In this document: one piece after another, positions 9,381 through 51,861 of the stretch
Layout of the letters: each line of letters starts with the position of its first letter
Position numbering within the stretch: position 1 is the stretch's first letter
Assembly: GCA_022843175.1 (NCBI GenBank)
Contig: JALHOE010000006.1
Span: 13,985 to 77,984, forward strand
DNA from: Deltaproteobacteria bacterium
GTDB taxonomy: Bacteria > Myxococcota_A > Polyangia > Polyangiales > JADJMO01
Direction: 5' to 3'
Length of the DNA stretch: 64,000 nt
Made by a program: the position numbers and the translations under genes
Notes under the pieces: model-generated
The model's database searches: none
Told to the model about the DNA's origin: nothing
Seen by the model: the letters and a program-made list of their open reading frames with translations, nothing else

Positions 9381-10112
9381 ATGTCCGAGGGCGACCGCGC
9401 GCTGATCGTCACGCCGACCTACAACGAGCGCGACAACCTCGAGCCGTTTCTCGAGGGTGTCTTCCGCTGGGCGCCCCGCGCCAATGTCCTCGTCGTCGAC
9501 GACAACAGTCCCGACGGCACCGGCAAGCTCGCCGACGAGATCGCCGCGCGCGATCCTCGCGTGAGCGTCATGCACCGGCCCGGCAAGATGGGCCTCGGCA
9601 GCGCCTACCGCGAGGCGTTCGCCAAGGGCCTCGCCGACCCGCGCTACGACTACTTCCTCGAGATGGACACCGACCTCTCGCACGACCCGCAGTACCTGCC
9701 GCAGTTCTTCCGCGCGCTCGACAGCGGCGCGGACGTGGTCATCGGCTCGCGCAACATTCCGGGCGGCGGCGTCGAGGGCTGGGGCGTCGGTCGCCACGTG
9801 CTGTCCAAGGGCGGCTCGCTCTACTCGCGCACGATCCTCGGCCTCGCGGTCCGCGATCTCACGAGCGGATACAAGGCCTTCCGCCGTCGCGCGCTCGAGG
9901 CGATCGACCTCGCGAGCATCCGCAGCGAGGGCTACTCGTTCCAGATCGAGATGACCTACCGCTTGCTCCGCAAGGGCTTCCGCGTCGAGGAGGTCCCGAT
10001 CATCTTCGTCGACCGCCGCCAGGGCGCTTCGAAGATGAGTCGGAAGATCTTCGCCGAGGCCATCGGCGTGGTGTGGAAGCTCCGCGCCGACGCCGTCCGC
10101 GGGAAGCTCTGA
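9381..10112 (+). CDS. Polyprenol/dolichol-phosphate mannosyltransferase (GT2, Dpm1/Ppm1-like)
   Basis: 243 aa. The translation is LIVTPTYNERDNLEPF...VLVVDDNSPDGTG...MDTDLSHDPQYLP...GSRNIPGGGVEGW. Confidence 0.88.
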   Translation: MSEGDRALIVTPTYNERDNLEPFLEGVFRWAPRANVLVVDDNSPDGTGKLADEIAARDPRVSVMHRPGKMGLGSAYREAFAKGLADPRYDYFLEMDTDLSHDPQYLPQFFRALDSGADVVIGSRNIPGGGVEGWGVGRHVLSKGGSLYSRTILGLAVRDLTSGYKAFRRRALEAIDLASIRSEGYSFQIEMTYRLLRKGFRVEEVPIIFVDRRQGASKMSRKIFAEAIGVVWKLRADAVRGKL

Positions 10113-10118
10113 CCGGAT

Positions 10119-10177
10119 GGGCGCTCGCTGACGCGCGCCTGTCTCGTCTCCACCGGCGCGCGCGTCAGCGAGCGCCT
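10119..10177. repeat. REP-like element, inverted pair (copies 1-2 of 6)
   Basis: GGGCGCTCGCTGACGCGCGCCT lies at 10119-10140 and GGCGCGCGCGTCAGCGAGCGCCT at 10155-10177. They are reverse complements of each other. The pair sits between convergent stops at 10112 and 10187. Confidence 0.85.
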
Positions 10178-13019: not shown

Positions 13020-14159
13020 CTACCGCCGGAGCGCCGTCGCGAGCGCATCGACGACGCGATCGAGCTCGTCGCTGTCCAGGCCGGGATCGATCGGCAGCGC
13101 CAGCGACTCCGCGGCCGCGCGCTCGGCGTTGGGGAACGAGCCCTGCGCGTCGGGGAGGGCGGCGAGCGCGGGCTGCCGCGGGAGCGTCTCTGGATAGTAG
13201 ACGGCCGTCTCGATGTCCCTGCCGAGGAGCTCGGTGCGCACCGCGGCGCGGCGCGCCGCGGCGACCCGGATCACGAACTGGTTGAACACGTGCTCGCCAC
13301 GCACGACCCGCGGCAGAAGCACGACGTCGTCGCTCGGGATGGGCTGCCCCTCGTTGGGCGCGCCGAGGCCGCACGAACGCAGGCGATCGACGTAGCGCGC
13401 GGCGATCTGCGCGCGTCGCGCGGTCTTGCTCGCGAGCAGGGGGAGCCGCACGCGGAGGAACGCGGCCTGGAGCGCGTCGAGCCGGAAGTTGCCGCCGACG
13501 ATCTCGTGGCGGTGCTTCTCGCGCGCGCCGTGGACGCGGAGCGCGCGGATCCGCTCGGCCAGCGCCGGATCGTTGGTGGTGACGAGCCCACCGTCGCCGA
13601 GCGCGGCGAGGTTCTTGGTCGGGAAGAACGAGAACGCCCCGAGCGCGCCGACCGTGCCGACCGCGTGGTCGCCGAGGCGCGCGCCGATGGCCTGCGCGGC
13701 GTCCTCGACGATCGGCACTCCCGCGTCGGCCGCGAGCTCCGCGAGCGGGTCGAGCTCGGCCGGTTGTCCGAACAGATGAACCACCACGATGGCGCGGGTG
13801 CGCGCGCCGATCCGCGCACCGATGGACCGAGCCGGCGACATGAAGTCGCGGAGGTCGATGTCGACGAAGACCGGGGTCGCCCCCGTGCGGACGATCGCTC
13901 CAGCCGTCGCGAAGAACGAGTAGGCCGGCGCGATCACCTCGTCGCCGGGGCCGACGCCGAGGGCGAGGAGGGAGGTCAGGAGCGCGTCGGTCCCGGACGA
14001 GACCCCGATCGCATGCGCCGCCCCGAGGTGCGCGGCGATCTCCTGCTCGAACGCCGCGAGCTCCTCGCCGAGAATGAGCTGACCGCTCGCGAGGACGCGG
14101 TCGAACGCGGCGCGGAGCGCGTCCCGCTCTCCCTCGTCGAATCGGGTCGGGTCGACCAT
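13020..14159 (-). CDS. DegT/DnrJ/EryC1/StrS-family PLP aminotransferase (WbpE/WlbC-like)
   Basis: The ATG at 14159 gives MVDPTRFDEGE... Supporting motifs are GVSSGTDALL, EVIAPAYSFFATA and FSFFPTKNL (the PLP lysine context). It is the tail of track ORF 13020..14609. Confidence 0.88.
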   Translation of the reverse strand: MVDPTRFDEGERDALRAAFDRVLASGQLILGEELAAFEQEIAAHLGAAHAIGVSSGTDALLTSLLALGVGPGDEVIAPAYSFFATAGAIVRTGATPVFVDIDLRDFMSPARSIGARIGARTRAIVVVHLFGQPAELDPLAELAADAGVPIVEDAAQAIGARLGDHAVGTVGALGAFSFFPTKNLAALGDGGLVTTNDPALAERIRALRVHGAREKHRHEIVGGNFRLDALQAAFLRVRLPLLASKTARRAQIAARYVDRLRSCGLGAPNEGQPIPSDDVVLLPRVVRGEHVFNQFVIRVAAARRAAVRTELLGRDIETAVYYPETLPRQPALAALPDAQGSFPNAERAAAESLALPIDPGLDSDELDRVVDALATALRR

Positions 14160-15513: not shown

Positions 15514-15639
15514 GGCCGGAGGCTAACACAGCCCGATTGCATTCCGAGGGTGCGAGAAACGTTGACTCCTTCGACGCTGGCCGGGAAGATCGCCCTGCCG
15601 TTCGCTGTCGTCCCGCCTCACCCCTGCTCGAGGTCCTTC

Positions 15640-16413
15640 GTGTCCCAGCCGCTCCGCATCGAAGTCGTTGGCGAGACGAACGTCGGGATGAAGCGTAATC
15701 ACAACGAGGACAACTTCGCGATCCTCGAAGAGGAAGGCCTCTACATCGTCGCCGACGGGATGGGCGGCCACGCTTCGGGCGAGGTCGCGAGCCAGCTCGC
15801 GGTCGATACGATCCGCGACTTCTTCCGCGCGACCAGCGCCGACCCGGACAAGACGTGGCCCTACAAGATGGACCGCGGCAAGGGCTACGAGGAGAACCGG
15901 CTGATCACCGCGATCAAGCTCGCGAACCTCAAGATCTACGAAGAGGCGCAGGGCAACATCGGCAAGCGCGGCATGGGCACCACGGTGGTCGCTGCGTTCG
16001 CGGTCGAGGGCGGCGTCTACCTCTCCCACGTCGGCGATTCGCGCATCTACCGCATCCGCGACAACAAGATCGAGCAGCTCACCGAGGACCACTCGCTGCT
16101 CAACGACTACATCAAGATGAAGCGCCTCTCCGCCGAGGAGATCGCCAACTTCCCGCACAAGAACGTCATCGTTCGCGCGCTCGGCATGAAGGAAAACGTC
16201 AAGGTCGACACGCGCTTCGAGGCGCCGCGCGCCGGCGACATCGTGCTGCTCTGCAGCGACGGGCTGTGCGGCCCGGTCGACGATCCGGACATCCTCGCCA
16301 TCGTGCGGTCGTCGAGCGATCTCAAGGGCGCGGTGCGCCGGCTGATCGCCCGCGCCAACGAGAACGGCGGCCCGGACAACATCACCGCCGTGCTCCTTCG
16401 CTGGGTCGCCTGA
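15640..16413 (+). CDS. PP2C-family Ser/Thr protein phosphatase
   Basis: The translation is RIEVVGETNVGMKRNHNEDNF...YIVADGMGGHASGEVAS...LLCSDGL...NGGPDNITAVLL. I chose the in-frame GTG at 15640. The track ORF starts at 15550. Confidence 0.9.
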   Translation: MSQPLRIEVVGETNVGMKRNHNEDNFAILEEEGLYIVADGMGGHASGEVASQLAVDTIRDFFRATSADPDKTWPYKMDRGKGYEENRLITAIKLANLKIYEEAQGNIGKRGMGTTVVAAFAVEGGVYLSHVGDSRIYRIRDNKIEQLTEDHSLLNDYIKMKRLSAEEIANFPHKNVIVRALGMKENVKVDTRFEAPRAGDIVLLCSDGLCGPVDDPDILAIVRSSSDLKGAVRRLIARANENGGPDNITAVLLRWVA

Positions 16414-16426
16414 GCCGTTGGTGACG

Positions 16427-16520
16427 TAGGCGCTCGCTGACGCGCGCGCCTATCCCGTCGCGCGCATGAGCCACGCAGGCGCGCGCGCAGCCAGATAGGC
16501 GCGCGCGTCAGCGAGCGCCT
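16427..16520. repeat. REP-like element, inverted pair plus a degenerate middle copy (copies 3-4 of 6)
   Basis: TAGGCGCTCGCTGACGCGCGCGCCTAT lies at 16427-16453 and ATAGGCGCGCGCGTCAGCGAGCGCCT at 16495-16520. A partial copy CAGGCGCGCGCGCAG lies around 16477-16491. The element sits between convergent stops at 16413 and 16540. Confidence 0.85.
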
Positions 16521-16539: not shown

Positions 16540-17880
16540 CTAGCCGGTGAGACGCGCGAGCGGGCCCGTGCAGTAGGCCGGATTACCAAACGTCTTCTGC
16601 TCGCCGAGGCCCATCGCGTGGCACAGCGAGACCAGCAGATTGTTGTGCTTGGTGCCCGCCGGGTACTTCAGGTAGCGGCCGGTCTTGAAGTAGCCGCCGC
16701 AGCCGCCGGCCATGACGAACGGCACGTCGCGGCGCGTGTGGCGGTTGCCGACGCCGAGCTCGTTGCCCCACACGATGACCGTGTTGTCGAGCATCGTCCC
16801 CGACCCCTCGGGGATCTTCTTCATGGCGGCGATGAGGTAGGCCATCTGCTCGGCGTACCACTTGTTGATCTTCACGAGCTTGTCCTGCGACGCCGCGTCG
16901 GAGTCGCCGTTGTGCGAGAGATCGTGGTGGCCCTCGGTGATCCCGAGCCACGAGTGCACCTTGCCTCCCACGCTGTTCGACCACTGGATGGAGCCGACCC
17001 GCGTGAGATCGCACGCGAGCGCCATCACCAAGAGGTCCATTTGCATCCGGCCAATGTCCGGGAACTTCGTCGCGTCGGTGAGCGACGAGATCGCCGGTCG
17101 CGACGGCTTCACGCACGCTCCGCCGAGGAGCCCGCCGGCGTCGAGGCGGGTCTCGATGTCGCGGAGCGCGTCTGCGTACTGCGCGACCTTCGCGCGGTCC
17201 TCGCTCGCGAGCTTCGGCTGGAGGCCGGCGAAGTCCTTGGTCACCGCGTCGAGCACGCTCTGCCGCCGGGCGCGGAGCTTGGCGAGCCCGGTCGGATCGG
17301 CGCCGAGCGCGCCGAACACGCGATCGAAGGCCTTGCCCGGATCGTTCTCCGGGGGCACCGGCTGGTTCGCGGCGCGGTAGGACATGCGCGACCACACCGT
17401 GGCGCCGCTCACCTGCACGCCGAGCTCGAGCGACGGGAACTTGGTCGTCGCGCCTACCGTCTTGGCGATGTGTTGATCGACGCTCGGCCCCCCGCCCCAA
17501 CCCGCGGTGCCCGAGTCGCCGCCGCCCTTGAACTCGGTGCCGGCGAGCAGCTCGATGCCGGTCCACAGGCTGCCCATGCCGGTCTGGTGACCGTCGCCGG
17601 GCCCGTGGTGCGCGGACTCCATGTCGACGTTGTCGAGGATGAGCAGCTTGTCGCGGTGCGGCGCCAGCGGCGCGAGGATCGACCCGAGCGTGAAGTCGGT
17701 CTCGCCCCCGCCCGGCGTCCACGCCCCGGGGATGGTGCCGTTCGGCGAGAACATCAGCACGAGCCGCTTGGGGAACTCGGTCGGCGCCGCCGAGACGTGG
17801 CGGCGATCGACGAAGTTGAGGAGCGGCAGCGCGAGCGCCGAGCCGCCGGCCGCGCGGAGGAAGTTGCGACGGTTGATCAC
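16540..17880 (-). CDS. DUF1552-family protein with twin-arginine signal
   Basis: The GTG start (GTGA overlap with the upstream stop) gives VINRRNFLRAAGGSALALPLL. Further matches are PKRLVLMFSPNG, ESAHHGPGDGHQTG and HHDLSHNGD. It is the tail of track ORF 16540..19083. Confidence 0.85.
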   Translation of the reverse strand: MINRRNFLRAAGGSALALPLLNFVDRRHVSAAPTEFPKRLVLMFSPNGTIPGAWTPGGGETDFTLGSILAPLAPHRDKLLILDNVDMESAHHGPGDGHQTGMGSLWTGIELLAGTEFKGGGDSGTAGWGGGPSVDQHIAKTVGATTKFPSLELGVQVSGATVWSRMSYRAANQPVPPENDPGKAFDRVFGALGADPTGLAKLRARRQSVLDAVTKDFAGLQPKLASEDRAKVAQYADALRDIETRLDAGGLLGGACVKPSRPAISSLTDATKFPDIGRMQMDLLVMALACDLTRVGSIQWSNSVGGKVHSWLGITEGHHDLSHNGDSDAASQDKLVKINKWYAEQMAYLIAAMKKIPEGSGTMLDNTVIVWGNELGVGNRHTRRDVPFVMAGGCGGYFKTGRYLKYPAGTKHNNLLVSLCHAMGLGEQKTFGNPAYCTGPLARLTG

Positions 17881-19652: not shown

Positions 19653-21077
19653 ATGCGCGACGCTGGAAAATTCCTCAAACACCTCATCTTCGCAGCAGTC
19701 GCAGTCGCAACCCTCATCCTCGGTTTCTCCGCGGCGTTGCCCGGGGAAGCGCGAGCTGCCGACCGTGTGGTCGTCTTTCATGCCGAGGGCGATGGCGCCG
19801 ACGCCATCGCCGACGACGTCAAGGACGGGATGCCCAAGGGGCTCGTCGCCGGCGATCCGAAGAAGTTCGAGACCGCGCTCGGCAAGGCCGGTCACAAGGG
19901 CGCGATGGGCAAGGCGCTCGACAGCACCAAGACGCGCGACAAGCTGGTGGAGAAGATCCGCAAGGCCGCGCAGTCCGCGAAGGCCGACGTCGTCGTCGTC
20001 ATTCGCGTGAAGAAGAACAAGAAGGATCGGACGGTCACCCTCCTCGTCGTCGATCCCGCGTCGAGCGCGCTCGCCCGCGAGGACGAGATCACCCTTCCGC
20101 TCAAGAAGGGCAAGGACGACAGCAAGGCGGTGATCGCCTCGGTGACGCCCGCGCTCGAGAAGTTCGGCACCGCGACGCCGCCCCCGCCGCCGCCGAAGAA
20201 GGACGACGACAAGAAGGACGACAAGAAGGACGACAAGAAAGACGATAAGAAGGACGACGACGACGACGACAAGAAGAAGGACGACAAGAAGGACGACGAC
20301 GACAAGAAGAAGGACGAGCCCGCGCCGTCCGACCGCAAGGTCTCCGATCCGGCCCACTCGCTCTTCGTCATCGGCGCGGGCGTCGAGCTCGGCATCCGGC
20401 AGTTCGAGTACAACCAGCCGATCACCAAGAACCTCCGCGCCTACCGAGTCGTCGGAGCGCCGATGCTGGGCCTCAACGGCGAGCTCTATCCCCTCGCCGG
20501 GAGCAAGGGACCGCTCGCGGGCATCGGCATCATCGCGAACTACGCCCAGGCGCTCGCGCTCCAGTCGGCCGCGGCCGGCGGGGCCAAGGTGTCGACGCGC
20601 TGGAACCGCTACCTGATCGGACTTCGCTATCGGATCGTGCTCAGCGACAAGGGCGCATACATCGCGCCGACCGTCGCCTACGGCGGCCAGAACTTCACGT
20701 TCAGCGGCCTCGACGACAAGACCAACCGCGAGTCACCGGCCGCGCGCTACAGCTACTTCCGACTCGGAATCGACGGGCGAATCCCCCTCGGCCCCGTCGG
20801 GATCATGGCGGGGTTCGGCTACCTGGTGACCTCGGTGCCCAAGGGCAACGAGAACATCGAGCTCGTGTCCGGTCGCTTCCCCAACGTCAGCGTCGGCGGC
20901 ATCGACGCCGACATCGGGCTCGGGATTGGTGTGACCAAGGGCCTCGAGGCACGCTTGATGTTCCACTACTCGCGCTTCTTCTACTCCATGAATCCCACGC
21001 CGGGCGACACGTACGTGGCCGGCGGCGCGCTCGATCAGCTCTCCAGCCTTCATATTGGAGCTGCGTATGTCTACTAG
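19653..21077 (+). CDS. Outer-membrane beta-barrel protein with N-terminal soluble domain and K/D-rich linker
   Basis: The ATG at 19653 gives MRDAGKFLKHLIFAAVAVATLILGFSAALPGEARA, which reads as a signal peptide. A PPPPPPKKDDDKKDDKKDD... linker follows. The C-terminal half has alternating beta strands and ends in IGAAYVY (terminal aromatic). It is the tail of track ORF 17982..21077. Confidence 0.75.
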   Translation: MRDAGKFLKHLIFAAVAVATLILGFSAALPGEARAADRVVVFHAEGDGADAIADDVKDGMPKGLVAGDPKKFETALGKAGHKGAMGKALDSTKTRDKLVEKIRKAAQSAKADVVVVIRVKKNKKDRTVTLLVVDPASSALAREDEITLPLKKGKDDSKAVIASVTPALEKFGTATPPPPPPKKDDDKKDDKKDDKKDDKKDDDDDDKKKDDKKDDDDKKKDEPAPSDRKVSDPAHSLFVIGAGVELGIRQFEYNQPITKNLRAYRVVGAPMLGLNGELYPLAGSKGPLAGIGIIANYAQALALQSAAAGGAKVSTRWNRYLIGLRYRIVLSDKGAYIAPTVAYGGQNFTFSGLDDKTNRESPAARYSYFRLGIDGRIPLGPVGIMAGFGYLVTSVPKGNENIELVSGRFPNVSVGGIDADIGLGIGVTKGLEARLMFHYSRFFYSMNPTPGDTYVAGGALDQLSSLHIGAAYVY

Positions 21078-21594: not shown

Positions 21595-21664
21595 GCCGTC
21601 ACGTCGGCGGGACGACTGACCACCCGGTCGTCACGCCGTCATGACGGTCAGAGCCGCGAGTCCC

Positions 21665-29594: not shown

Positions 29595-29644
29595 TCGGAG
29601 TCTCAGTCCAGAGTCCGACGTAACCAGGCCCCCCGGAAACGACC

Positions 29645-30730
29645 ATGGCGACCACTCCCTCCTCGAAGATGAACCAGATCTACATCGGCATCGGCGCGCT
29701 CGCCGTGGTCGGTGCGCTCTACTACATGAACACCAAGAAGGAGGCGGCCAACACCAACACCACCTTCACTCAGGGTTCGAAGGAGGGCGCGGCTCCGCAG
29801 GTGAAGGTCGTCCCCGAAGAGATCGACAAGCTCACGCTCCGGGCCAAGGACAAGCCGGAGATCGTCCTCGAGAAGAAGGACGGCAACTGGACGATGGCCG
29901 CGCCGACGGCGGGCGCGAAGGTGCAGAAGAGCGCGGTCGACGACCTGCTCAACGGCCTCAAGGGGCTCACCTTCAAGGAGCGGATCGCCACCGGCGCGAA
30001 CCAGTTCGCCGCCTACGAGCTCGACGAGGGCAAGGGCATCCACGTCGTCGCCACCAAGGCCGGCGCCCCGATCGTCGACCTCTGGCTCGGTGCGACCAAG
30101 TCGCGCGGCCAGATGGCGCGCCTCGGCAACGACGCGGTCGGCAACGTGTGGAGCGTCACCGGCGTGTCCTCATGGACGTTCGACAAGGCGCCGAAGGACG
30201 TGCGCGAGAAGAAGATCTGGGATCTCTCCCGCGACAACATCACCACCATCGAGCTCAAGGACGCGAAGGGCGGCTTCGTGTTCACCAAGAACGAGTCCGC
30301 GGCCGGCGACGCCGGCGCCACCGACGCGTCGGCGGGCGACGCCGGCGTCAAAGCGGCGTGGAGCGGCACCCTCGACGGCAAGCCGATCGCCGGCCTCGAC
30401 GCCGCCAAGGTCGACGACCTGTTGAGCGCGTTCACCCTCGGCGGCGTGCTCAACGCCGACGACTTCGGCGACGGCAAGTCCGACGCCGAGACCGGGCTCA
30501 AGTCGCCCGAGGCCACGGTCCTCTCGTTCAAGGGCAAGGACGGCGTCGCGCAGAAGATCACCCTCGGCAAGAGCGACGGCACCAAGCGCTACGCCCTCCG
30601 CGAGGGCGACAGCACGGTGTACCTCCTCGCCGAGAGCCCCTCGGGCTGGGCCGAGGCGGGCGTCGACAAGTTCGTTCCCGCGCCGACCGCCGGCGACGCC
30701 GGCGACGCCGGCACCGACGCGAAGAAATAG
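29645..30730 (+). CDS. DUF4340-domain protein
   Basis: 361 aa with an N-terminal TM segment (IYIGIGALAVVGALYYM). The repeated beta-rich modules (NWTMAAPTAGAKVQKSAVDDLLNGLKGL) are typical of DUF4340 genes that follow gldG-like genes. Confidence 0.7.
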   Translation: MATTPSSKMNQIYIGIGALAVVGALYYMNTKKEAANTNTTFTQGSKEGAAPQVKVVPEEIDKLTLRAKDKPEIVLEKKDGNWTMAAPTAGAKVQKSAVDDLLNGLKGLTFKERIATGANQFAAYELDEGKGIHVVATKAGAPIVDLWLGATKSRGQMARLGNDAVGNVWSVTGVSSWTFDKAPKDVREKKIWDLSRDNITTIELKDAKGGFVFTKNESAAGDAGATDASAGDAGVKAAWSGTLDGKPIAGLDAAKVDDLLSAFTLGGVLNADDFGDGKSDAETGLKSPEATVLSFKGKDGVAQKITLGKSDGTKRYALREGDSTVYLLAESPSGWAEAGVDKFVPAPTAGDAGDAGTDAKK

Positions 30731-30788
30731 GCGCGCGCGTCAGCGAGCGCCTACGCGAAGAAACAGGCGCGCGCGTCAGCGAGCGCCT
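30717..30788. repeat. 36-bp tandem duplication carrying two direct REP-like copies (copies 5-6 of 6)
   Basis: ACGCGAAGAAATAGGCGCGCGCGTCAGCGAGCGCCT at 30717-30752 is followed immediately by the same 36-mer with a single T>C change at 30753-30788. Unit 1 contains the TAG stop of the DUF4340 gene. Unit 2 contains the last codons and stop of galE on the other strand. Confidence 0.9.
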
Positions 30789-31750
30789 GAAGTGTGAAAC
30801 CGCGCCGCAGTCTCGATCAGCTCCCGGATGTCCGTATACCGCGGCGTCCACGAGAGCACCTGCTTGGCGCGCGTCGGGTCGGCGACGAGCGACGGCGGAT
30901 CGCCCTCACGGCGCGGTCCGAGCGTGTGCGGCACCTTCTTGCCGAGGACGGCCTCGACGGTCGTGATGATCTCGCGCACCGAGTTGCCGGTGCCGGTACC
31001 GAGGTTGACCGCCTCGCTCGCCCCGCCCGCCGCGAGGTGGCGGAGGGCGCGCACGTGCGCGTCGGCCAGATCGAGGACGTGGATGTAGTCGCGGACCGCG
31101 GTGCCGTCGGGCGTTGCGTAGTCGGTGCCGAACACCGTCAGCGGCGGCCGACGGCCGAGCGCGGCCTCGATCGTGAGCGGCACGAGGTGGGTCTCCGGAT
31201 CGTGGCGCTCGCCCATCGTGCCGTCGGGGTGTGCGCCTGCGGCATTGAAGTAGCGGAGGGCCATCCAGCGCAGCCCGTAGGCGTCGCCGTAGGAGCGGAG
31301 GATCATCTCGACCGCCAGCTTCGTCGCGCCGTACGGGTTGACGGGGGCGAGCCGGTGGTCCTCGCGCAGCGGCAGCGTCTGCGGATCGCCGTAGGTCGCG
31401 GCCGTCGACGAGAAGACCATGTTCTTGACCCCGCTCGTCACGAGCGTGTCGATCAGCGCAAAGGTCTTGAGCGTGTTGTTGGTCCAATAGGTCCGGGGGT
31501 CGCGGACCGACTCGCCCACGGCGGTGAACGCTGCGAAATGGACCACTGCCTCGATCCGATGTTCGTCCACCACCCGCGCGACCAGCGCGCGGTCGCCCAC
31601 GTCCCCCTCGACGAACGGCCCGAACCGGACGGCGTCTCGGTGACCGCGGCCGAGGTCGTCGAGGACGACCGGCTCGAACCCCTGCTCCGACAGCGCGCGG
31701 GCGGTGTGGCTGCCGATGTACCCGGCACCGCCGGTGACGAGGACGCGCAT
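30776..31750 (-). CDS. galE: UDP-glucose 4-epimerase
   Basis: The ATG at 31750 gives MRVLVTGGAGYIGSH. Also present are YGATKLAVE (the YxxxK motif), ALRYFNAAGA and DYIHVLDLADAH. It is the tail of track ORF 30776..32506. Confidence 0.92.
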   Translation of the reverse strand: MRVLVTGGAGYIGSHTARALSEQGFEPVVLDDLGRGHRDAVRFGPFVEGDVGDRALVARVVDEHRIEAVVHFAAFTAVGESVRDPRTYWTNNTLKTFALIDTLVTSGVKNMVFSSTAATYGDPQTLPLREDHRLAPVNPYGATKLAVEMILRSYGDAYGLRWMALRYFNAAGAHPDGTMGERHDPETHLVPLTIEAALGRRPPLTVFGTDYATPDGTAVRDYIHVLDLADAHVRALRHLAAGGASEAVNLGTGTGNSVREIITTVEAVLGKKVPHTLGPRREGDPPSLVADPTRAKQVLSWTPRYTDIRELIETAARFHTSGAR

Positions 31751-32632: not shown

Positions 32633-32745
32633 CTGCATAGGCATAGCCCCTCACCCGCTCCGGTGCGGCAGGTTGTCGCGCCGGGGTTGCCGCAGAACTG
32701 GCACCACGAAACCGCCGCGCGTACCGTCTAATCTCCGAGAGACCC

Positions 32746-35109
32746 TTGGCCGAAGAGAGCAAAGTCTGCACGACGTGCGGTCGCCGGTTCGGCGACGACG
32801 CGGTGTTCTGCCCGAAGGACGGCACCGCGCTCGTCCCGTCGACCGGCTCCGGTCAGGGCAAGGACTCGTTCCTCGGCCGCGAGATCCTCGGACACATCGA
32901 GATCCGCTCCCTGATCGGGTCCGGCGCGATGGGCCGGGTGTATCGCGCGCACCAGCGGGGCATCGACCGCGACGTCGCGGTGAAGATCCTCCACAAGGAG
33001 CTCGCGCAGAACCCCGATCTGGTCTCGCGCTTCCTCCGCGAGGCCAAGGTCGCCTCGCGCCTCAACCACAACAACCTCGTGCAGGTGCTGCTCGCCGGTC
33101 AGCTCGACGACAGCACGATGTACCTGGTCATGGAGTACCTCGACGGCATCTCGCTCCACTCGGCGCTGCTCGCCGCGGGGGGCGCGCTGCCGCTCGAGCG
33201 GGCGCTCCATATCGGTCTGCAGATGTGCGACGCGGTCGGCCAAGCGCACGAGGCCGGCGTGGTTCACCGGGACATCAAGCCCGAGAACATCATGCTGGTG
33301 CGCCGCGCCGACGACCTCGACTTCGTCAAGGTGCTCGACTTCGGGATCGCGCGCCTCGCGAGCGGCGATCCGGGCCGCTCGGGGATCGAAACGCAGGCCG
33401 GCCTGGTCTTCGGCACCGCGCGTTATTTGTCGCCCGAGGGCGCGCGCGGCGAGCCGGTCGGCCCGCCGAGCGACAACTACGCGATCGCCACCGTCATCTA
33501 TCAGGCCATCGCAGGTCGCACGCCGTTCGAGAGCGACTCCTCGGTGTCGCTGCTCGTCGCCCAGATCCACGATCCGGCGCCGCCGCTCCGCAGCCATCCC
33601 CGCGCCAGCCGCGTGCCGCCGGGGGTCGAGGCGGTGATCATGAAGAACCTCGCCAAGGACCCGGCGCAGCGCGACGCCGACGCGCACACGTTCGGCCGCG
33701 CGCTGCTCGACGCGGCGATCGCCGCGGGCATGTCGTCCGACGATCTGCTCGTGCGCCCGGCCGTCGCGCGCTCGCGTCGCTCGCCGTCCGGCGGCCAGTT
33801 CCCGGTGCTCGGGACACCCGTGTTGTCCGGCACCCACGCGGTCACGCCTCCGCCCGGCCTCGGCAAGCCGCTCGCGTCCACCCAAACGCAGCTCGCGCCC
33901 ATGAAGCCCGACGGGATGAAGCCGCCCGAAGGCATCTATCACCCCTCCTACAGCGGTCGCCCGGCAGACGGCGCGCCCGCCGCGCCGCCTCCCGCGCAGC
34001 GTCGCGTGGCCAAGACGGTCGACGACGAGCCCGACCAACCGAAGGTCAACGCCGCCGGGACCGTGGCGATGCCACCGCAGCCCACGCCGTCCGGCGAGGA
34101 GTCGATCCTCGGCACCGCGTCCACCCCGCGCGACGAGAGCCTGATGGCCGCGGGCGTTCCGCGGCGCGGTCGCTGGACGGCGCTGCTCCTGGTCGGCGCC
34201 CTGGTCGGCGTGTTCGGCGTCGGCATCGCCGCCTACCGCCTCGGCTGGATCGGTCAGCACAAGGTCGACGACAAGAAGACCGAGGTCGAGGAGCTCCTCC
34301 GACGCGCGCAGAGCGCGCTCGACGCGCGCAAGTGGGACAAGCCGCCGGGCGAGAACGTCCTCGAGCTCACCGACAAGCTCCTCGCGATCGCCCCGAGCGA
34401 GACCCGCACCTTCCAGATCCGCAACGCCGCCGCCGACCGCATCGTGCGCGAAGCGCTCGACAAGAAGGCCCACGACGACCTCACCGGTGCGCTGGCGCTC
34501 TACCAACTCGCAGCCAAGCTCTCGCCGCCCGACAAGGGCCTGCAGGAGGAGATCGAAGAGGTCGAGGCCACCCTCGCCAAGGATCCGAGCACCGCCCAGC
34601 TCGTGACCGACGGCGGCGCCGCGCGCTTCTCCGCGACCACGCGCATCGGGGGCGACGAGGCGATCAAGCCCAACGAGCCGGTGACGATCGTGGCCACCAT
34701 CACCGGGGAGACGCCGAAGGAGGGCGATCCCAAGGCGCACTTCACCATCTCGGGGCCGAGCCTCGAGAAGCCGAAGGAGATCGAGGCGCGCGCCGAGACG
34801 CCGACGCGCTACGTCGGCTCGTTCGTCTTCCCGATGAACGGCAAGTACAAGGTGAAGTTCTTCGCGCGGCCCGAGGGGTATCCGGTCGCGGCGGACGCCG
34901 AGCGCCTCGTCGGCTCCGCGGCCCCCGCGCCCGTCGCCACGCCCAAGTCGAGCGGCGGCTGGCCCACCAAGCCGGTGGGCACCTGGCCGACGAAGCCCGT
35001 CGGCACGGCGCCCACGGGGCAGCCGACGATCATCCTCACGCCGGATCCCGTCCCGCTCCCCGCGCCGACGACGGCGCCCCCGCCTCCGCCGTTCCCCACG
35101 ATGCCGTGA
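32746..35109 (+). CDS. Ser/Thr protein kinase with N-terminal zinc ribbon, one TM segment and a large C-terminal extracytoplasmic region
   Basis: The start is TTG. The sequence has CTTCGRRFGDDAVFCPKDG, then GSGAMGRVY...VAVKIL...HRDIKPENIM...DFGIA...YLSPE. The TM segment is WTALLLVGALVGVFGVGIAAY. Confidence 0.9.
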   Translation: MAEESKVCTTCGRRFGDDAVFCPKDGTALVPSTGSGQGKDSFLGREILGHIEIRSLIGSGAMGRVYRAHQRGIDRDVAVKILHKELAQNPDLVSRFLREAKVASRLNHNNLVQVLLAGQLDDSTMYLVMEYLDGISLHSALLAAGGALPLERALHIGLQMCDAVGQAHEAGVVHRDIKPENIMLVRRADDLDFVKVLDFGIARLASGDPGRSGIETQAGLVFGTARYLSPEGARGEPVGPPSDNYAIATVIYQAIAGRTPFESDSSVSLLVAQIHDPAPPLRSHPRASRVPPGVEAVIMKNLAKDPAQRDADAHTFGRALLDAAIAAGMSSDDLLVRPAVARSRRSPSGGQFPVLGTPVLSGTHAVTPPPGLGKPLASTQTQLAPMKPDGMKPPEGIYHPSYSGRPADGAPAAPPPAQRRVAKTVDDEPDQPKVNAAGTVAMPPQPTPSGEESILGTASTPRDESLMAAGVPRRGRWTALLLVGALVGVFGVGIAAYRLGWIGQHKVDDKKTEVEELLRRAQSALDARKWDKPPGENVLELTDKLLAIAPSETRTFQIRNAAADRIVREALDKKAHDDLTGALALYQLAAKLSPPDKGLQEEIEEVEATLAKDPSTAQLVTDGGAARFSATTRIGGDEAIKPNEPVTIVATITGETPKEGDPKAHFTISGPSLEKPKEIEARAETPTRYVGSFVFPMNGKYKVKFFARPEGYPVAADAERLVGSAAPAPVATPKSSGGWPTKPVGTWPTKPVGTAPTGQPTIILTPDPVPLPAPTTAPPPPPFPTMP

Positions 35110-35827
35110 ACAGCGTCTGATAGGTCTCGGGCGTGTAGCTCTCCGAGGCGGTGCGCACGTGCCAGGGCGGCGCGATGGCGAGGCCACCGATCCGCCCGGG
35201 CTTTGCCTCGATGAGCACGACGTCGGCCTCCTCGCCCTCACGCGGATGAACGAACCGCATGCGCTTCGCGTGCAGCCCGACTTCGGCGAGCTCGCCGAGC
35301 GTCTCCACCAGGCGCGCGACCGGCATCGACAGCACAACGCGCCCGCGCGGCGCGAGGAGCCTTCGCGCCGCGACGACGAACGCGTGGAGTGTGCCGCGGG
35401 TAAACGCGCGCGCGGCTGCGCGCGACGAGCCGGTCGCGAGGGGCCCGGATTCCGGCTCGAACCAGGGAGGATTGGCCACGACGAGCTCGCTTCGAATCCC
35501 GCTGACCGACGCGACGTCGGCCTCGATGACCTCCATCGACGCGGCGTTGGCGACCGCGTTGCGCCGCGCCAGCTCGGCGTGGTCGCGATCGATCTCGATC
35601 GCGACCGCACGCTCCACCCTGCCCGCGGCGAGCAGGCACAAGGCCACCGCGCCCGGCCCCGACGCGAGATCGATCAGGGAGCGGAACGGCCGCGCGCGCC
35701 CGAGGGCCGCGAAGCGAGCCAGCATCGGCGCCTCGAGCGCCACGCGGTAACCGTGCGCCGGCTGCTCATACGTGACCAGACCGCCGAGCAACGAGTCGCG
35801 GGTCGTAGCGATCTCGAGCGCCCTCAC
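35036..35827 (-). CDS. SAM-dependent N6-adenine-type methyltransferase (TrmN6/YfiC-like)
   Basis: 263 aa. LIDLASGPGAVAL is the SAM motif I and LVVANPPWFEP is the NPPW catalytic motif. Its 3' end overlaps the kinase 3' end by 74 nt. Confidence 0.68.
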   Translation of the reverse strand: MRALEIATTRDSLLGGLVTYEQPAHGYRVALEAPMLARFAALGRARPFRSLIDLASGPGAVALCLLAAGRVERAVAIEIDRDHAELARRNAVANAASMEVIEADVASVSGIRSELVVANPPWFEPESGPLATGSSRAAARAFTRGTLHAFVVAARRLLAPRGRVVLSMPVARLVETLGELAEVGLHAKRMRFVHPREGEEADVVLIEAKPGRIGGLAIAPPWHVRTASESYTPETYQTLFTASWGTAEAGAPSSARGAGRDPA

Positions 35828-35942: not shown

Positions 35943-36587
35943 TTAGCTGTTCGCCCTTGGCTCGTCAAACTGTCGTGCGCCCATGAACTCGGGCATCGTC
36001 GCGTGCCCCTCGCTGCTGATCCCCTCGCGCAACAGCACCGCCCGCAGGGTGCGCCACAGGATGCGGGCGTCGAGCCGGAGGCTCCAGTTGTCGACGTACC
36101 ATACGTCGAGCTCGAACTTCCGATTCCAGTCGATCGCGTTGCGGCCGTTGATCTGTGCCCAGCCGGTGATGCCGGGGAGCACCTCGTGACGGCGCGCCTG
36201 CTCGGGCGAGTAGCGCGGGAGGTATCGCACGAGCAGCGGGCGCGGACCGACGAGGCTGAGATCACCCGTCAGCACGTTGAACAGCTGCGGCAGCTCGTCG
36301 AGGCTCGACGAGCGTAGCCACGCTCCGACGAGGGTGAGCCGCTGCTCATCCGGAAGGAGCCGCCCCTCTGCGTCTGTGGCGTTGGACATCGTGCGAAACT
36401 TCACCACGCGGAACGTCTTGCCGTGGCGACCGGGGCGCTCCTGGCGGAAGAACACCGGCGCCCCCATGCTCGCGCGCACCGCGACGGCGGCGGCGGCGAT
36501 GATCGGCGCGGTCACCACGAGCCCGGCCGCCGCCGCTGCACGGTCGCACGCGACCTTGACGAAGAGCCGCCAGCCGGCTTGCTTCAT
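35943..36587 (-). CDS. Small polyprenyl-phosphate sugar-phosphate transferase (PglC/WbaP C-terminal type, 'bacterial sugar transferase')
   Basis: The ATG at 36587 (ATGA overlap with the upstream stop) gives MKQAGWRLFVKVACDR... Matches are PVFFRQERPGRHGKTFRVVKFRTM, LDELPQLFNVLTGDLSLVGPRP and GITGWAQINGRN. Confidence 0.9.
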   Translation of the reverse strand: MKQAGWRLFVKVACDRAAAAAGLVVTAPIIAAAAVAVRASMGAPVFFRQERPGRHGKTFRVVKFRTMSNATDAEGRLLPDEQRLTLVGAWLRSSSLDELPQLFNVLTGDLSLVGPRPLLVRYLPRYSPEQARRHEVLPGITGWAQINGRNAIDWNRKFELDVWYVDNWSLRLDARILWRTLRAVLLREGISSEGHATMPEFMGARQFDEPRANS

Positions 36588-37834
36588 GCGCGACCCTGCT
36601 CTCGCACCAGGCGGTCGAGCACGTCGAGGTATCGTTGGGCGAGCGCCTCGCGCGTCGCATTGGCGAGCACCCACGCGCGGCCCCGCTCGCCCAGCTCGCT
36701 CCTGAGCGCGGGCTCGTCGGCGAGGCGGCGGATCGCGTCGGCGATCGCTCGGGCGTTCTCCGGCTCCGCGAACACGCCTGCGCGCGCCTGGTCGCATACC
36801 AACTCCCGCGCGACCCCGTCGATCGCGAGTAGCGTGGGCCGCGCGCACGCCATGTAATCGAATACCTTGTTCGGGTAGACCGTGCGGAACGTTGGGTTGT
36901 TCTGCAGCACCGCGGCCCCGACGTCGGCGGCTCGCACGATCGCCGGCATGCGGTCCTTGGCCACTGCGCCATGAAAGCGAATGTTGTCGAGGCCGCGCGC
37001 TGCGGCGGCCGCCTGCAAGCCCGCGCGCTCGGGGCCGTCGCCGACGCACGCGATAAGGATGTCACTCCGGTCGCGGAGCAACGCGGCGGCTTCCACCAGC
37101 TGACCGAGAGCGTTGGCTCGACCGTGCGCGCCGGCATACATCACGACGAACCGATCGCCCCACCCGAGCTCGCGGCGGGCGTCGTTGTCCCTCGGACCGG
37201 GCGTAAACAGCTCGACGTCGGCGCCGTTGGGCACGAACACGATCTTGGCGCGATCGGCGAGGCCGCGCGCAACGATGTCCTCCTCGAAGGCAGGCGTCAG
37301 CACGTTGATCCGGTCGGCGGTGCGATAGGCCCACGCCTCGATGGCGTAGAGCCCTCTCGTCAGGAGGGATTCCTTGCGAAGGACGCCCGTGGTCACGGCG
37401 CTCTCGGGCCACAGATCGCGAACCTCGAAGACCCAGGGCTTCTTGCGCCCGGCGAGGTGCGCGGCGATCCAACCGGGAATCGCCGCGAGGAGCGGCGGAG
37501 ACGTGGCGATGACGACGTCTGCGTCGTCGAGCGCGCGGGTGGCCCACGCGGCCGACATCGTGTAGCCGGCGAAGGCCATCATTCGCCCGAGGTAGCCCTT
37601 GGCATAGACCGGTGGCACCCAGCAGCGACATACCCGCACGGAGCCGTCCTGCTCCCAAGTCGTGAGCCTGCCGCGGTAGCGCTCCGGGACGGTGCCTGTG
37701 CCGTAGTCGACGGTGCCTGCGATGACCGTGACCTCGTGTCCCGCGTCGGACCACAACCGCGCGAGCTCGTTGAACCGTGAGCCGCCGGACATTCCGGGCA
37801 TGAGGTAGTACTGGTGAACCACCGCGATCTTCAT
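36584..37834 (-). CDS. Glycosyltransferase family 4 (WcaI-like)
   Basis: The ATG at 37834 gives MKIAVVHQYYLMPGMSGGSRFNELARLW. A GT4 C-terminal E-x7-E-type region is present (PNKVFDYMACARPTL). The gene has ATGA overlaps at both ends. Confidence 0.85.
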   Translation of the reverse strand: MKIAVVHQYYLMPGMSGGSRFNELARLWSDAGHEVTVIAGTVDYGTGTVPERYRGRLTTWEQDGSVRVCRCWVPPVYAKGYLGRMMAFAGYTMSAAWATRALDDADVVIATSPPLLAAIPGWIAAHLAGRKKPWVFEVRDLWPESAVTTGVLRKESLLTRGLYAIEAWAYRTADRINVLTPAFEEDIVARGLADRAKIVFVPNGADVELFTPGPRDNDARRELGWGDRFVVMYAGAHGRANALGQLVEAAALLRDRSDILIACVGDGPERAGLQAAAAARGLDNIRFHGAVAKDRMPAIVRAADVGAAVLQNNPTFRTVYPNKVFDYMACARPTLLAIDGVARELVCDQARAGVFAEPENARAIADAIRRLADEPALRSELGERGRAWVLANATREALAQRYLDVLDRLVREQGRA

Positions 37835-39927
37835 CGGACGTCTCCGATCATGCCGTCCTCGATCGCGAACGAGAATTGACTCGGCCCCGCGACGACGAAC
37901 CTGCCGCGCTCGGTTCTGCCGAGCACATGCCCGGGGGCGCCGAGCACCGAGATGAGCGTCTGCGGGAGGTGCTCGGTGAAATGGGCAGCGATCGACGCGA
38001 CCGGCGTTCGCTCGCCGTAGTAGCGCGAGAGCCAGCCGCGCGGCGGAGTCTCGCTGCCGACCACGACGTCGAGCGGCACGGGACGAGCCGTGCCATCGAA
38101 GACCCCCACGGAGAAGGGCCCCTCGGCGGTCAGGAGCTCGACCGCGGCTCCCTCGCGTCGGTGCTCCGCGACGCCAGCGAGCCACTGCAGACCGATCCGG
38201 CGCGCGCCGGTGCCCTTGACCCGATCGACGACCACCCAACATTCGTCGCCGAAGCGGAGGACCGACCGCCGGTGCACACAGGGGCCGCCGGGAAGCCGCT
38301 CGTACCCGAAGTGCTCCCCCGCGAACAAACCGTACCGCCCGTGCGACTCGAACTGGAGCGTACGCGCGCGCGTCCAGTAGAGCGGCTTGAACCGCCGCCA
38401 GTGGAGCATCTGATCGGCGTCGTCGATGACGACGGTGTTGTGGCTCGCGGTGCGGAAGAAGTGTTGATGCCAGACCGGCGGGCCGTTGTAGAGGAAGCTC
38501 CCGCCGTCGGCGAGGACGTTCACCCCGCGGAAGAAGACGTCGACGTGGAGCATATCGATCTGAGAGAAGCGCTCGGAGAGCGAGCCGCAGCGCATCGTCG
38601 CGAAGGAGCGTTCGTCGTCTCCGCGCAGCACGTGGTAGCCGGAGCTCGCGAAGCTCGCGCTGCATCGCGGACGAGCGCGGAGCGGCAGGTCGAGCGCGCT
38701 CGCTCCCTGCCACCACACGAGCTCTTCGTCCCACGGACCGCGGTCGTAGAGGCGCTCGCCGCGCGTGAGCGCGCTGACGGTCTGCAAAATCGGTCGAAAG
38801 TCGGAGAAGTCGCAGGTAGAGAGCTGAGTCTGATGCGCGCCGTCGTTGGCGCCGAAGTTGGGGAGTCGGCCGTCGGTCGGACACTGGTGCGCGTAGAGGA
38901 AGTCCAACGACCGCTCCATCGCTGCGAGCCACACCGAGGGGACGGCGCGCCCGGCTTGCTGGAGGAGGCGCGCGCTCCACACGTAGTTGATGAGCGCGAC
39001 GCGATGGTAGTTGTGCGAGTGCTGGATGTACGCACCGTCCGGATAGATCTGACGGTCGGCCTCCTGCGTCAGCTCTTCTACCCCGAGGGCGAGCCAGCCG
39101 GCCGACTGCTTGGTGGGCACCACGAGCCCAGCGAGCAGCAGGCCGAGCGCCTCCGACAGAAGGTGGTTGTTGTAGACGGCGAAGCGCGCGTAATCGATGA
39201 TCGACTCGATGTGAACGGCGGAGCGGTGGAGCTGCACCGCGAGGGGCTCCGCGAAGCCGTCGAGCGATTCTCCGTTGCGTTCGAACACCGCGGCCGCGAA
39301 CGCCCACGCCATCATGCGGAACGCGACCTCTTGGCCCGAGTTCCAGTGAACGCCGAAACCGTAGGGGTTGTTGGAGACGAAGCTGCGCACCTGCTGCACG
39401 AACGCGTTGCCAAGGGTCGGGCGGAGCTCGGGGAAGAACGTCGCGGCACGCGCGAACCAGTAGGCCTGTGGGAACCGCGCGACCTCCCAGGTCAGCTTCA
39501 CGTCGCCGACGCGTGGCTCGTCCGCGAGGGCGACCGAGTGCGGACGCTCCGCGGCCCACCGCTGCCCGTTGGTTGGGTTGACGTGCCAGTCGATCGGATC
39601 GCCGTAGTCCGCGACCCACCGCCCGAACGCGCGGATCTTCCCGTCCGCCGCTTGCTCGGCGAGCTCGCGGAGCTGTGCGAGTCTTTCGCGACCGAGGACC
39701 TCGGCGAGGGCTTCACGCACGTCGGCCGGCCGCGCGAACGGCAGGCGGTCGGCGAGCCGCTCGAGGGAGACCGGCTCGAGGAGCTCGGTGGTCGGCACCG
39801 CGGCGCGCGGGCGCACGAAGGCGTCGCTCCGGCGCCGCAGCTCGTGGCGTACCCGAAAGAGCACGCGCCGTAACCCGAGCTCGCGGAGCTCCTGGGTGCC
39901 ATTACGGAGCGAATCGAGGATGTTCAT
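37831..39927 (-). CDS. Heparinase II/III-family protein
   Basis: 698 aa. An alpha/alpha-toroid-like N-terminal half is followed by C-terminal matches HNYHRVALINYVW and HVDVFFRGVNVLADGGSFLYNG...ASHNTVVID, typical of Hepar_II_III. Confidence 0.72.
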   Translation of the reverse strand: MNILDSLRNGTQELRELGLRRVLFRVRHELRRRSDAFVRPRAAVPTTELLEPVSLERLADRLPFARPADVREALAEVLGRERLAQLRELAEQAADGKIRAFGRWVADYGDPIDWHVNPTNGQRWAAERPHSVALADEPRVGDVKLTWEVARFPQAYWFARAATFFPELRPTLGNAFVQQVRSFVSNNPYGFGVHWNSGQEVAFRMMAWAFAAAVFERNGESLDGFAEPLAVQLHRSAVHIESIIDYARFAVYNNHLLSEALGLLLAGLVVPTKQSAGWLALGVEELTQEADRQIYPDGAYIQHSHNYHRVALINYVWSARLLQQAGRAVPSVWLAAMERSLDFLYAHQCPTDGRLPNFGANDGAHQTQLSTCDFSDFRPILQTVSALTRGERLYDRGPWDEELVWWQGASALDLPLRARPRCSASFASSGYHVLRGDDERSFATMRCGSLSERFSQIDMLHVDVFFRGVNVLADGGSFLYNGPPVWHQHFFRTASHNTVVIDDADQMLHWRRFKPLYWTRARTLQFESHGRYGLFAGEHFGYERLPGGPCVHRRSVLRFGDECWVVVDRVKGTGARRIGLQWLAGVAEHRREGAAVELLTAEGPFSVGVFDGTARPVPLDVVVGSETPPRGWLSRYYGERTPVASIAAHFTEHLPQTLISVLGAPGHVLGRTERGRFVVAGPSQFSFAIEDGMIGDVR

Positions 39928-41864: not shown

Positions 41865-41889
41865 CGGCTTGAGAGCTTCCTACCAGACC

Positions 41890-43815: not shown

Positions 43816-43861
43816 GTGGACCGGCAGACGCTACTTCTCGGGGTCGGGTACCGCAACGTCG

Positions 43862-46359: not shown

Positions 46360-46375
46360 CACCGGAGATTCGCGT

Positions 46376-47431: not shown

Positions 47432-47455
47432 CCGGCGTCGCACGCCCCGAGCAGC

Positions 47456-49880: not shown

Positions 49881-49887
49881 GGTCTTC

Positions 49888-51060: not shown

Positions 51061-51073
51061 TCGTGACCTGCCT

Positions 51074-51859: not shown

Positions 51860-51861
51860 GC

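Follow-up and report, generated by a model that had tools for sequence, protein, structure and literature searches.

The window, i.e., the whole 64-kb stretch of DNA analysed in this study, has a G+C content of approximately 70% and carries 54 genes with 3.3% intergenic DNA; of the junctions in its gene map, 10 are convergent, 10 are divergent, and 33 are tandem. Copies of a 24-nt GC-rich repeat unit, AGGCGCGCGCGTCAGCGAGCGCCT, lie at three of the convergent junctions (sites 1 to 3) in one or the other orientation. The flanking genes were identified by Pfam and synteny, and the bit scores in the following list are those of the covariance model described below.

Site 1
9381-10112, + strand: GT2 glycosyltransferase (dolichol-phosphate mannosyltransferase-like) gene, upstream of site 1; stop codon 10110-10112
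10119-10140, - strand: unit 1a, 22 nt, left arm of an inverted pair, + strand reading GGGCGCTCGCTGACGCGCGCCT; 34.9 bits
10154-10177, + strand: unit 1b, right arm of the inverted pair, CGGCGCGCGCGTCAGCGAGCGCCT; 44.6 bits
10187-10429, - strand: conserved 80-aa gene, converging on site 1; stop codon 10187-10189
Site 2
15550-16413, + strand: PP2C phosphatase gene, upstream of site 2; stop codon 16411-16413
16428-16451, - strand: unit 2a, exact 24-mer in complementary orientation, preceded by GT, + strand reading GTAGGCGC; 45.2 bits
16477-16492, + strand: truncated half copy, AGGCGCGCGCGCAGCC, between the arms of the inverted pair (units 2a and 2b)
16497-16520, + strand: unit 2b, exact 24-mer
16540-17880 (start approximate), - strand: DUF1552 (HXXSHH) gene, converging on site 2; stop codon 16540-16542
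Site 3
29645-30730, + strand: DUF4340 gene, upstream of site 3; TAG stop codon 30728-30730
30717-30752, + strand: first 36-nt tandem unit, comprising the final 11 nt of the DUF4340 gene, the TAG stop codon, and unit 3a (30729-30752); 45.6 bits
30753-30788, + strand: second 36-nt tandem unit, comprising unit 3b (30765-30788) and, ahead of it, the duplicated gene tail ACGCGAAGAAAC
30776-31750 (start approximate), - strand: NAD-dependent epimerase/dehydratase gene, converging on site 3; 3' end inside unit 3b

Copy number and placement of the repeat

The 24-mer contains a 17-nt core, which was written as GCGCGTCAGCGAGCGCCC and, more precisely, as GCGCGTCAGCGAGCGCC. Their copies in the window are located as follows.

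Exact 24-mer: 16428-16451 (-), 16497-16520 (+), 30729-30752 (+), and 30765-30788 (+)
24-mer with one mismatch: 10154-10177 (+)
17-nt core: 10120-10136 (-), 10160-10176 (+), 16429-16445 (-), 16503-16519 (+), 30735-30751 (+), and 30771-30787 (+)

Four exact copies of the 24-mer and one copy with a single mismatch were detected in the 64-kb window, against 0.00 expected in shuffles, and the sixth copy (10119-10140, - strand) has one GC dinucleotide fewer than the 24-mer. Over 24 nt, or 26 nt including the flanking TA, four copies have the same sequence; TA is found on both flanks in only two of the six copies. The core occurs as six exact copies, whereas only 0.68 copies were expected even when two mismatches were allowed, and none of the 100 shuffles reached six copies, confirming the number of occurrences given in the preliminary description. 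A covariance model built from the repeat family and used with the filters off assigned 35-46 bits to the six window copies; with the same model without filters, the rest of the window scored 16 bits or less, and no degenerate or decayed units were found in it. This separation between copies and background indicated that the window holds exactly six units, corresponding to a local density of three loci and six units per 64 kb, a count that refers to the window only.

The repeat occupied 3/10 convergent, 0/10 divergent, and 0/33 tandem junctions (hypergeometric p = 120/23426 = 0.005). The distance between a unit and the stop codon was 0-19 nt, the stop codons being overlapped at site 3. The element had previously been described as confined to three intergenic gaps between convergent genes: the convergent placement stood, whereas a strictly intergenic location did not hold at site 3, where the units overlap the last codons and the stop codons.

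Hairpin structure and covariation

The unit, an imperfect GC-rich palindrome of 24 nt, has an outer stem (5-6 bp) that is separated from the inner stem (2-3 bp) by a G.A mismatch or by tandem G.A/A.G mismatches, and its loop is a G-N-N-A tetraloop. A single window unit folded into 6 bp, a G.A mismatch, 3 bp, and a GTCA loop, with predicted energies of -16.7 and -15.7 kcal/mol on the two strands. This agreed with the earlier proposal that a lone unit forms six outer and three inner pairs around a GTCA loop, with the addition of the G.A mismatch between the stems.

At site 1, units 1a and 1b form an inverted pair with a spacer of 13 nt (10141-10153), and the predicted fold of this pair (-54.4 kcal/mol; z, -7.1) has an outer stem of approximately 22-25 bp. 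The preliminary description had placed the start of an outer stem of approximately 22 bp 7 nt after the stop codon of the GT2 gene; on the coordinates, the first unit does start at the seventh nucleotide past this stop codon, and the estimated stem length agrees with the computed one. The 80-aa gene on the opposite side is 93% identical to its ortholog in a related contig (L114), and the C-terminus is the same. Site 2 (16428-16520) consists of an inverted pair together with the half copy: units 2a and 2b form a hairpin of approximately 27 bp plus an inner stem, and the fold of the whole site was -95 kcal/mol (z, -8.2). The z scores of inverted-pair folds ranged from -5 to -9.

Thirteen distinct units from the window and its relatives were aligned without gaps, and compensatory changes were found in three stem pairs: G-C to C-G at 3-22, C-G to G-C at 6-19, and G-C to C-G at 9-16. 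The covariation score was 0.176, compared with 0.035 in shuffles (0/500 reached the observed value), and slid registers all gave lower scores. The covariation among the 13 units comprises few independent events and is supportive rather than conclusive with regard to a constraint on the hairpin. The loop was invariably G-N-N-A (GTCA, GCAA, GCGA, GAAA, GCTA, or GCCA), and positions 7/18 and 8/17 were G.A or A.G in most units. Since both RNA and single-stranded DNA can form stable GNRA-like loops and tandem sheared G.A pairs, selection on RNA and selection on single-stranded DNA fit these data equally.

Rewritten gene ends at site 3

Site 3 is a 36-nt tandem duplication (30717-30788), and the duplicated block includes the final 11 nt of the DUF4340 gene. 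The AG of the TAG stop codon of this gene is supplied by unit 3a, while the minus strand of unit 3b encodes the C-terminus of the epimerase, S-G-A-R, and its TGA stop codon (30776-30778, corresponding to TCA of the loop). Relative to L124, in which this site is empty, the insertion came with replacement of the previous 9-nt spacer and of the final four codons of the epimerase, the C-terminus being ...RFHTSGAR* in the window and ...RFHTRRSD* in L124; no target-site duplication was recognisable between the filled and the empty site. The repeat units therefore rewrite gene 3' ends (both stop codons and a new four-amino acid C-terminus at site 3), which matters for the annotation of metagenome-assembled genomes (MAGs).

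Each of the two stop codons at site 3 lies within one hairpin, and a second hairpin is located 24-35 nt further on in each transcript. Because the stop codon is inside the hairpin, a terminating ribosome would melt that hairpin, and as a result of the duplication each of the converging mRNAs would retain one hairpin that the terminating ribosome does not reach. Liang, Rudd and Deutscher (2015) reportedly found that protein output is lowered, through ribosome stalling, when E. coli REPs lie within approximately 15 nt of a stop codon.

The repeat family in related contigs

Syntenic metagenome contigs were compared with the window, their nucleotide identities to it being 89-90% (L123/L124), 79% (L114/L121/L122), 78% (L117/L111), and 75% (L119); the identity between L114 and L121 is 99.2-99.6%. 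The named homologs of the DUF4340 gene belonged to MAGs of 'Polyangiales bacterium' and 'Deltaproteobacteria bacterium'. Site 3 was empty in L124, which is 90% identical to the window (gap of 9 nt), and in the contigs carrying P0003 (gap of 8 nt), and the repeat was also absent from this site in L116 and L111. Site 1 was empty in a contig with a 94%-identical GT2 (gap of 12 nt), and L117-L120 had no repeat there, their gaps of 29-33 nt containing small hairpins of their own. In L114/L115/L121/L122, site 1 held a single copy of a sister variant with the sequence AGCCGCGCGCGTCAGCGAGCGGGT; compared with AGGCGCGCGCGTCAGCGAGCGCCT of the window, the core is identical and the stem ends differ. The 79%-identical genome carried this variant at site 2 as well, there in three to at least four copies with a 79-nt tandem unit.

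The number of units at site 2 varied from two and the half copy in the window to four in L114, three in L121, at least four in L122, one in L117, and none in L119. In L114, a 79-nt block repeated twice gives two tandem inverted pairs. The contig of L122 ends inside the tandem array of site 2, and that of L115 ends 5 nt past the unit of site 1; such repeat arrays may break metagenomic assemblies.

Another convergent junction, UvrD|TPR, carried inverted pairs in L114 and L117, the latter (13270-13335) with a fold of -58.1 kcal/mol (z, -7.6). The pair in L114 occupies a gap of 70 nt and is missing from L121 and L122, which are 99.3% identical to L114 and have a gap of 13 nt with a 13-nt mini-palindrome. 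Single units were detected by the covariance model and a motif scan as follows.

L111, 17180-17203: single unit, 9 nt past a kinase gene
L117, 923-946: single unit, after dnaE
L116, 5160-5183: single unit, in a divergent gap

The further units in the relatives thus lay at the convergent UvrD|TPR junction of two lineages, in a divergent gap, and in two gaps between tandem genes, and all of them were extragenic.

The copies of each genome match one another and not their orthologous counterparts, with one stem variant per genome. Since copies of the same genome are alike even at orthologous junctions, they point to replacement or homogenisation within genomes rather than simple inheritance in place. 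These comparisons showed that the repeat family is copied within genomes, is gained and lost at orthologous 3' junctions, and shifts in copy number via tandem duplications of 36-79 nt; the picture from the related contigs is one of a dynamic family of repeats rather than of three terminators at fixed positions. On the other hand, since sites 1 and 2 are occupied in genomes that are only 79% identical, the elements there could also be old and selected, rather than recently mobile.

Searches outside the window

The core GCGCGTCAGCGAGCGCC gave at least 110 single matches in a genome collection, in unrelated phyla and mostly inside genes. As their flanks shared nothing with the repeat among the matches listed, these were attributed to chance and rejected as family members. 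Chance matches in coding regions are plausible in GC-rich genomes, because the core is reverse-complementary to GCGCTCGCTGACGCGC, which can be read as Ala-Leu-Ala-Asp-Ala. In 241 million metagenome records (JGI), the exact 24-mer had a single match (L113, 904-927, in a 138-aa ORF on the minus strand), which was located inside a coding region and also treated as chance; the absence of the 24-mer from the other records indicates a very narrow distribution of this variant. A degenerate 24-mer found no matches in viral contigs. No Rfam family was obtained at a permissive E-value, the only hits being to mir-9456 (31-37 bits versus a gathering score of 80); these sub-threshold matches to a miRNA precursor were obtained because the query is a long hairpin.

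Origin and possible function of the repeat

The six copies are likely to represent a lineage-specific REP-like DNA repeat family in an uncultured Polyangiales-like myxobacterium. Architecture and dynamics, with the copies counted in the window only, support a REP/REPIN/BIME-like non-autonomous palindromic element as the best reading. With a length of 24 nt, the unit is a short stem-loop palindrome in the range of 20-40 nt. The repeat shows a bias toward 3' ends (3/10 convergent versus 0/43 other junctions), and the units in the relatives are extragenic. It is arranged as single units, as inverted doublets folding into one long hairpin (REPIN-like; sites 1 and 2, site 2 of L114, and 13270-13335 of L117), and as local tandem arrays (BIME-like). 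Insertion/excision polymorphism is evident from the empty sites 1 and 3 in the closest relatives and from the UvrD|TPR pair that distinguishes L114 from L121/L122. Strain-variable locations and a genome-specific sequence variant are known traits of REPs (PMC3337134; bioRxiv 10.64898/2026.03.23.713779).

A REP/BIME-type element had already been suggested in the preliminary description. The palindrome, doublets, clusters, presence/absence pattern, and homogenisation bear this suggestion out, whereas the sequence tags do not. GTAG at the 5' foot was found in two of the six window copies (16426-16429 and the complement of 30751-30754) and in none of the units of the relatives, the remaining copies having ATAG, ATGG, AGAG, or TCAG at this position; CGTC does not form a terminal tag. 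No PF01797/Y1 or other transposase was present among the window genes or in the Pfam lists of approximately 150 kb of relatives, a sample in which a single-copy gene is rarely captured. The RAYT-REP system, of which the present family is a candidate member, is marked by a single-copy RAYT gene (Y1/HUH transposase) with the same REPs on its flanks and by tens to hundreds of REP copies per genome.

Spread of the repeat to new sites would be driven in trans by a RAYT, i.e., an IS200-IS605-type transposase acting on single-strand hairpins, or by recombination. Insertions would survive mainly between convergent genes, because no promoter would be disrupted there. Once transcribed, the U-tract-less hairpins would act bidirectionally, both as roadblocks to exonucleases at 3' ends and as partial terminators. 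Judging from their predicted stability (-16 to -95 kcal/mol, with no U-tract), these hairpins probably also serve as bidirectional roadblocks or stabilisers of 3' ends. In E. coli, REPs are partly Rho-dependent terminators and block mRNA decay, and they correlate with higher expression of both convergent genes. If confirmed genome-wide, the repeat would be a candidate for ending or stabilising transcripts in a region in which U-tract terminators do not exceed chance.

As the main alternative, it is possible, if rather unlikely, that the unit is a dedicated sequence-specific bidirectional terminator similar to the TRIT of Mycobacterium, with a host factor that reads the hairpin in RNA without a U-tract and with copies that spread by selection at 3' ends. 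U-tract terminators were not above chance in the window (8 versus 5.9, 10 versus 7.8, and 9 versus 8.8 expected); at the three loci, no canonical intrinsic terminator was called and no T-run follows the stems. The units are 0-19 nt from stop codons, with overlap at site 3, which is comparable to the position of approximately -8 given for TRITs (PMC3152330). The core and the G and A of the loop are kept across genomes with 75-80% identity, in which the stems covary, and junctions without the repeat often have unique hairpins of their own (-20.3 kcal/mol in L119; -37.8 kcal/mol at 21595-21664 of the window). However, in the closest relatives only 8-12 nt separate the genes of these convergent pairs and the hairpin element is missing, indicating that the motif is dispensable there. 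A junction may hold from one to at least four copies, with differences between 99.3%-identical strains, as is typical of selfish or neutral repeats, and units also occur in one divergent gap and in tandem gaps.

Identity of 24/24 nucleotides across sites needs copying whatever the function. Since independently arisen hairpins would not be identical to this extent, the family of U-tract-less bidirectional terminators that the preliminary description had offered as a second possibility cannot be the whole story; the relatives with gaps of 8-12 nt also argue against it in this form. What remains of that proposal, termination without U-tracts, is compatible with the data as a consequence of the hairpins, and the REP-like and TRIT-like readings are not mutually exclusive. 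We regard as quite doubtful a variant that does without a RAYT, in which a lineage-specific factor would recognise a structure-constrained RNA/ssDNA hairpin, with its G-N-N-A loop, sheared G.A pairs, and covarying stems, and bring about U-tract-independent bidirectional 3'-end formation in Polyangiales; the repeat would then be a counterpart of TRIT that spreads by some copy mechanism.

It is very improbable that the repeat is a DNA-level array of binding sites for a protein of nucleoid structure or topology, in the way that gyrase or IHF binds the BIMEs of E. coli, and serves to relieve positive supercoils between convergent genes. Positive supercoils do accumulate at convergent junctions, and inverted pairs and clusters are also the architecture of BIMEs. 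However, no result of this study speaks for protein binding, the compensatory stem changes point to intrastrand pairing and not to a duplex recognition sequence, and a chromosomal site that is required would not be expected to be present in some close relatives and absent from others.

We attach hardly any credence to a classical IS-derived MITE with terminal inverted repeats, target-site duplication, and a DDE transposase. The ends of the master copies, TAGGCGC...GCGCCTA, could be read as TA-flanked inverted repeats, and one relative (L114, 2841-3014) does contain a genuine MITE with TA duplication; nevertheless, the repeat unit has only 24 nt and no internal sequence, TA borders both sides in only two of the six copies, and no duplication separates the filled from the empty site 3 (L124). 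Chance recurrence, or the independent and convergent evolution of hairpins rich in G+C in a genome of 70% GC, to which the 17-mer core in at least 110 unrelated GC-rich genomes (mostly inside genes) and the single 24-mer in a metagenomic coding region might be referred, is effectively refuted by six copies versus 0.68 expected, all within 3.3% of the sequence, by the four copies identical over 24 nt (26 with TA), and by sister variants at the same junctions in relatives.

Comparison with known terminator and repeat families

Canonical intrinsic terminators, like the repeat of the window, are GC-rich hairpins directly downstream of stop codons; on the other hand, the stems of the repeat are far longer and more stable, have no T/U run, and share one sequence at unrelated genes. 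A closer functional parallel is TRIT ('tuberculosis Rho-independent terminator'), a conserved palindromic motif described by Gardner et al. 2011 (PMC3152330), which occurs 147 times in one Mycobacterium genome, is mostly bidirectional, lies at approximately -8 of the stop codon, and was reported to be restricted to Mycobacterium. Both are repeated, lineage-restricted GC-rich stem-loops without a canonical U-tract, located at gene ends and often overlapping the end of the coding sequence (PMC3152330). No sequence relationship is apparent, the likeness being functional and positional only, and insertion/excision polymorphism and tandem amplification, which were shown for the window family, are not noted for TRIT in the available part of that source (PMC3152330).

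The superfamily of CGTC-tagged REPs consists of small palindromes with loops of 4-5 nt and stems of 8-9 bp, as does the window repeat, and both are mostly head-to-head dimers with no dedicated transposase found alongside (PMC3733652). In the CGTC-tagged REPs of Di Nocera et al. 2013 (PMC3733652), CGTC is terminal and unpaired, the first pairs of the stem are A-T, and the tail is CCA-like. In the present family, in contrast, CGTC is internal and appears only in the loop region of one subfamily, that with the GTCA loop (GCGTCAGC), the other subfamilies having GCAA, GCGA, or GAAA; the stems are G-C rich, and no CCA tail is present.

The best-known REP/REPIN-type repeats are those of Gamma- and Alphaproteobacteria. 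Like the window repeat, the REP/BIME of Enterobacteria and the REPIN of Pseudomonas are extragenic imperfect palindromes of 20-40 nt with a bias toward 3' gaps, and in both cases single units, inverted doublets, and clusters occur at strain-variable locations, with each genome having its own variant. The REPs of E. coli are distributed over convergent (approximately 60%), tandem (approximately 40%), and divergent (approximately 1%) gaps and are found in approximately 30% of the convergent gaps (bioRxiv 10.64898/2026.03.23.713779), an occupancy similar to that in the window (3/10). In contrast to REP/REPIN, the window repeat has no conserved unpaired GTAG, and no RAYT was seen in the window or in approximately 150 kb of relatives; it is also more GC-rich, has a G-N-N-A tetraloop and G.A mismatches, and its host belongs to Myxococcota, for which no description of REP/REPIN was found in the literature searched. 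The REP-like repeat is a familiar kind of element of an otherwise ordinary class, in a host group without a description in that literature, and, if confirmed genome-wide, would extend the REP phenomenon to large myxobacterial genomes of 70% GC.

Matches to the 24-nt element elsewhere

One exact match to the 24-mer of the element was found in an unrelated metagenome contig, where it was located inside an ORF (L113, 904-927), and the 17-nt core matched at least 110 unrelated GC-rich genomes (L001-L110 among the matches listed). Therefore, naive genome-wide counts of the motif in GC-rich bacteria would include coding false positives.

Other features of the window

A different type of intergenic hairpin, unrelated to the 24-nt element, was observed at 2368-2512, in the 242-nt gap from the end of dnaE (2358) to an HTH gene (2601). 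Its arms, each of 30 nt, were 100% complementary and separated by 79 nt:
2374-2403, (TGCCCG)x5 array, left arm
2483-2512, inverted (CGGGCA)x5 array, right arm

A long imperfect periodic repeat (20178-20332; period of 12-15 nt) encoded a low-complexity Lys/Asp-rich (KKDD) stretch within a 474-aa ORF (19653-21077), for which the Pfam search gave no match. The 24-nt element had no copies within 35943-54655, a large gene cluster of the surface-polysaccharide/nonulosonic-acid type containing genes for a sugar transferase, GT4, a heparinase II/III-like protein, asparagine synthase, two Polysacc_synt_2 dehydratases, NeuB, a CMP-sugar cytidylyltransferase, a DegT aminotransferase, and a HisF/HisH-like pair. 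Two further ORFs showed an apparent convergent overlap of 74 nt (35036-35109), which is either real or caused by one mis-called stop/start in the crude gene map:
32647-35109, + strand, Ser/Thr kinase
35036-35770, - strand, methyltransferase

Gene content and heptamer arrays in relatives

Metagenomic contigs from relatives, syntenic with the window, carried a UDP-glucose/GDP-mannose dehydrogenase gene (L123, 1371-2705; L117, 20306-20744), flanked by a 175-179-aa gene on one side and a CpsB/CapC-like gene on the other. This gene was absent from the window, in which the counterpart of the locus was a 70-nt convergent gap (21595-21664) with a unique hairpin (predicted fold, -37.8 kcal/mol; z of -2.8).

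Several contigs from the relatives ended within or adjoining repeat arrays, suggesting that such arrays break short-read assemblies:
L122, 17338-17358, contig end
L115, 1651-1679, contig end
L123 end/L124 start

The relatives also carried a gene for a 118-aa PF05635 protein, located between the ABC-auxiliary and DUF4340 genes (9590-9946 in both L116 and L111); PF05635 is the "23S rRNA intervening sequence protein", a four-helix bundle. Only a 50-nt gap (29595-29644) with a small hairpin was present at this position in the window. In both contigs, the gene had inverted heptamer arrays, (GGTCGAA)n ... (TTCGACC)n, on either side, and arrays of this type were also found in L114:
L116, 9500-9533 and 9947-9981, heptamer arrays
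L111, 9499-9527 and 9947-9982, heptamer arrays
L114, 7923-7985, heptamer array
L114, 2841-3014, heptamer inverted array, 174-nt insertion

The last of these was missing from L121, a contig 99.3% identical to L114. Since the insertion was flanked by a duplicated TA and bounded by terminal inverted repeats of ~15 nt (GTTCGCGATTCTCGA vs GTTCGCAATTCTCGA), it looks like a MITE.
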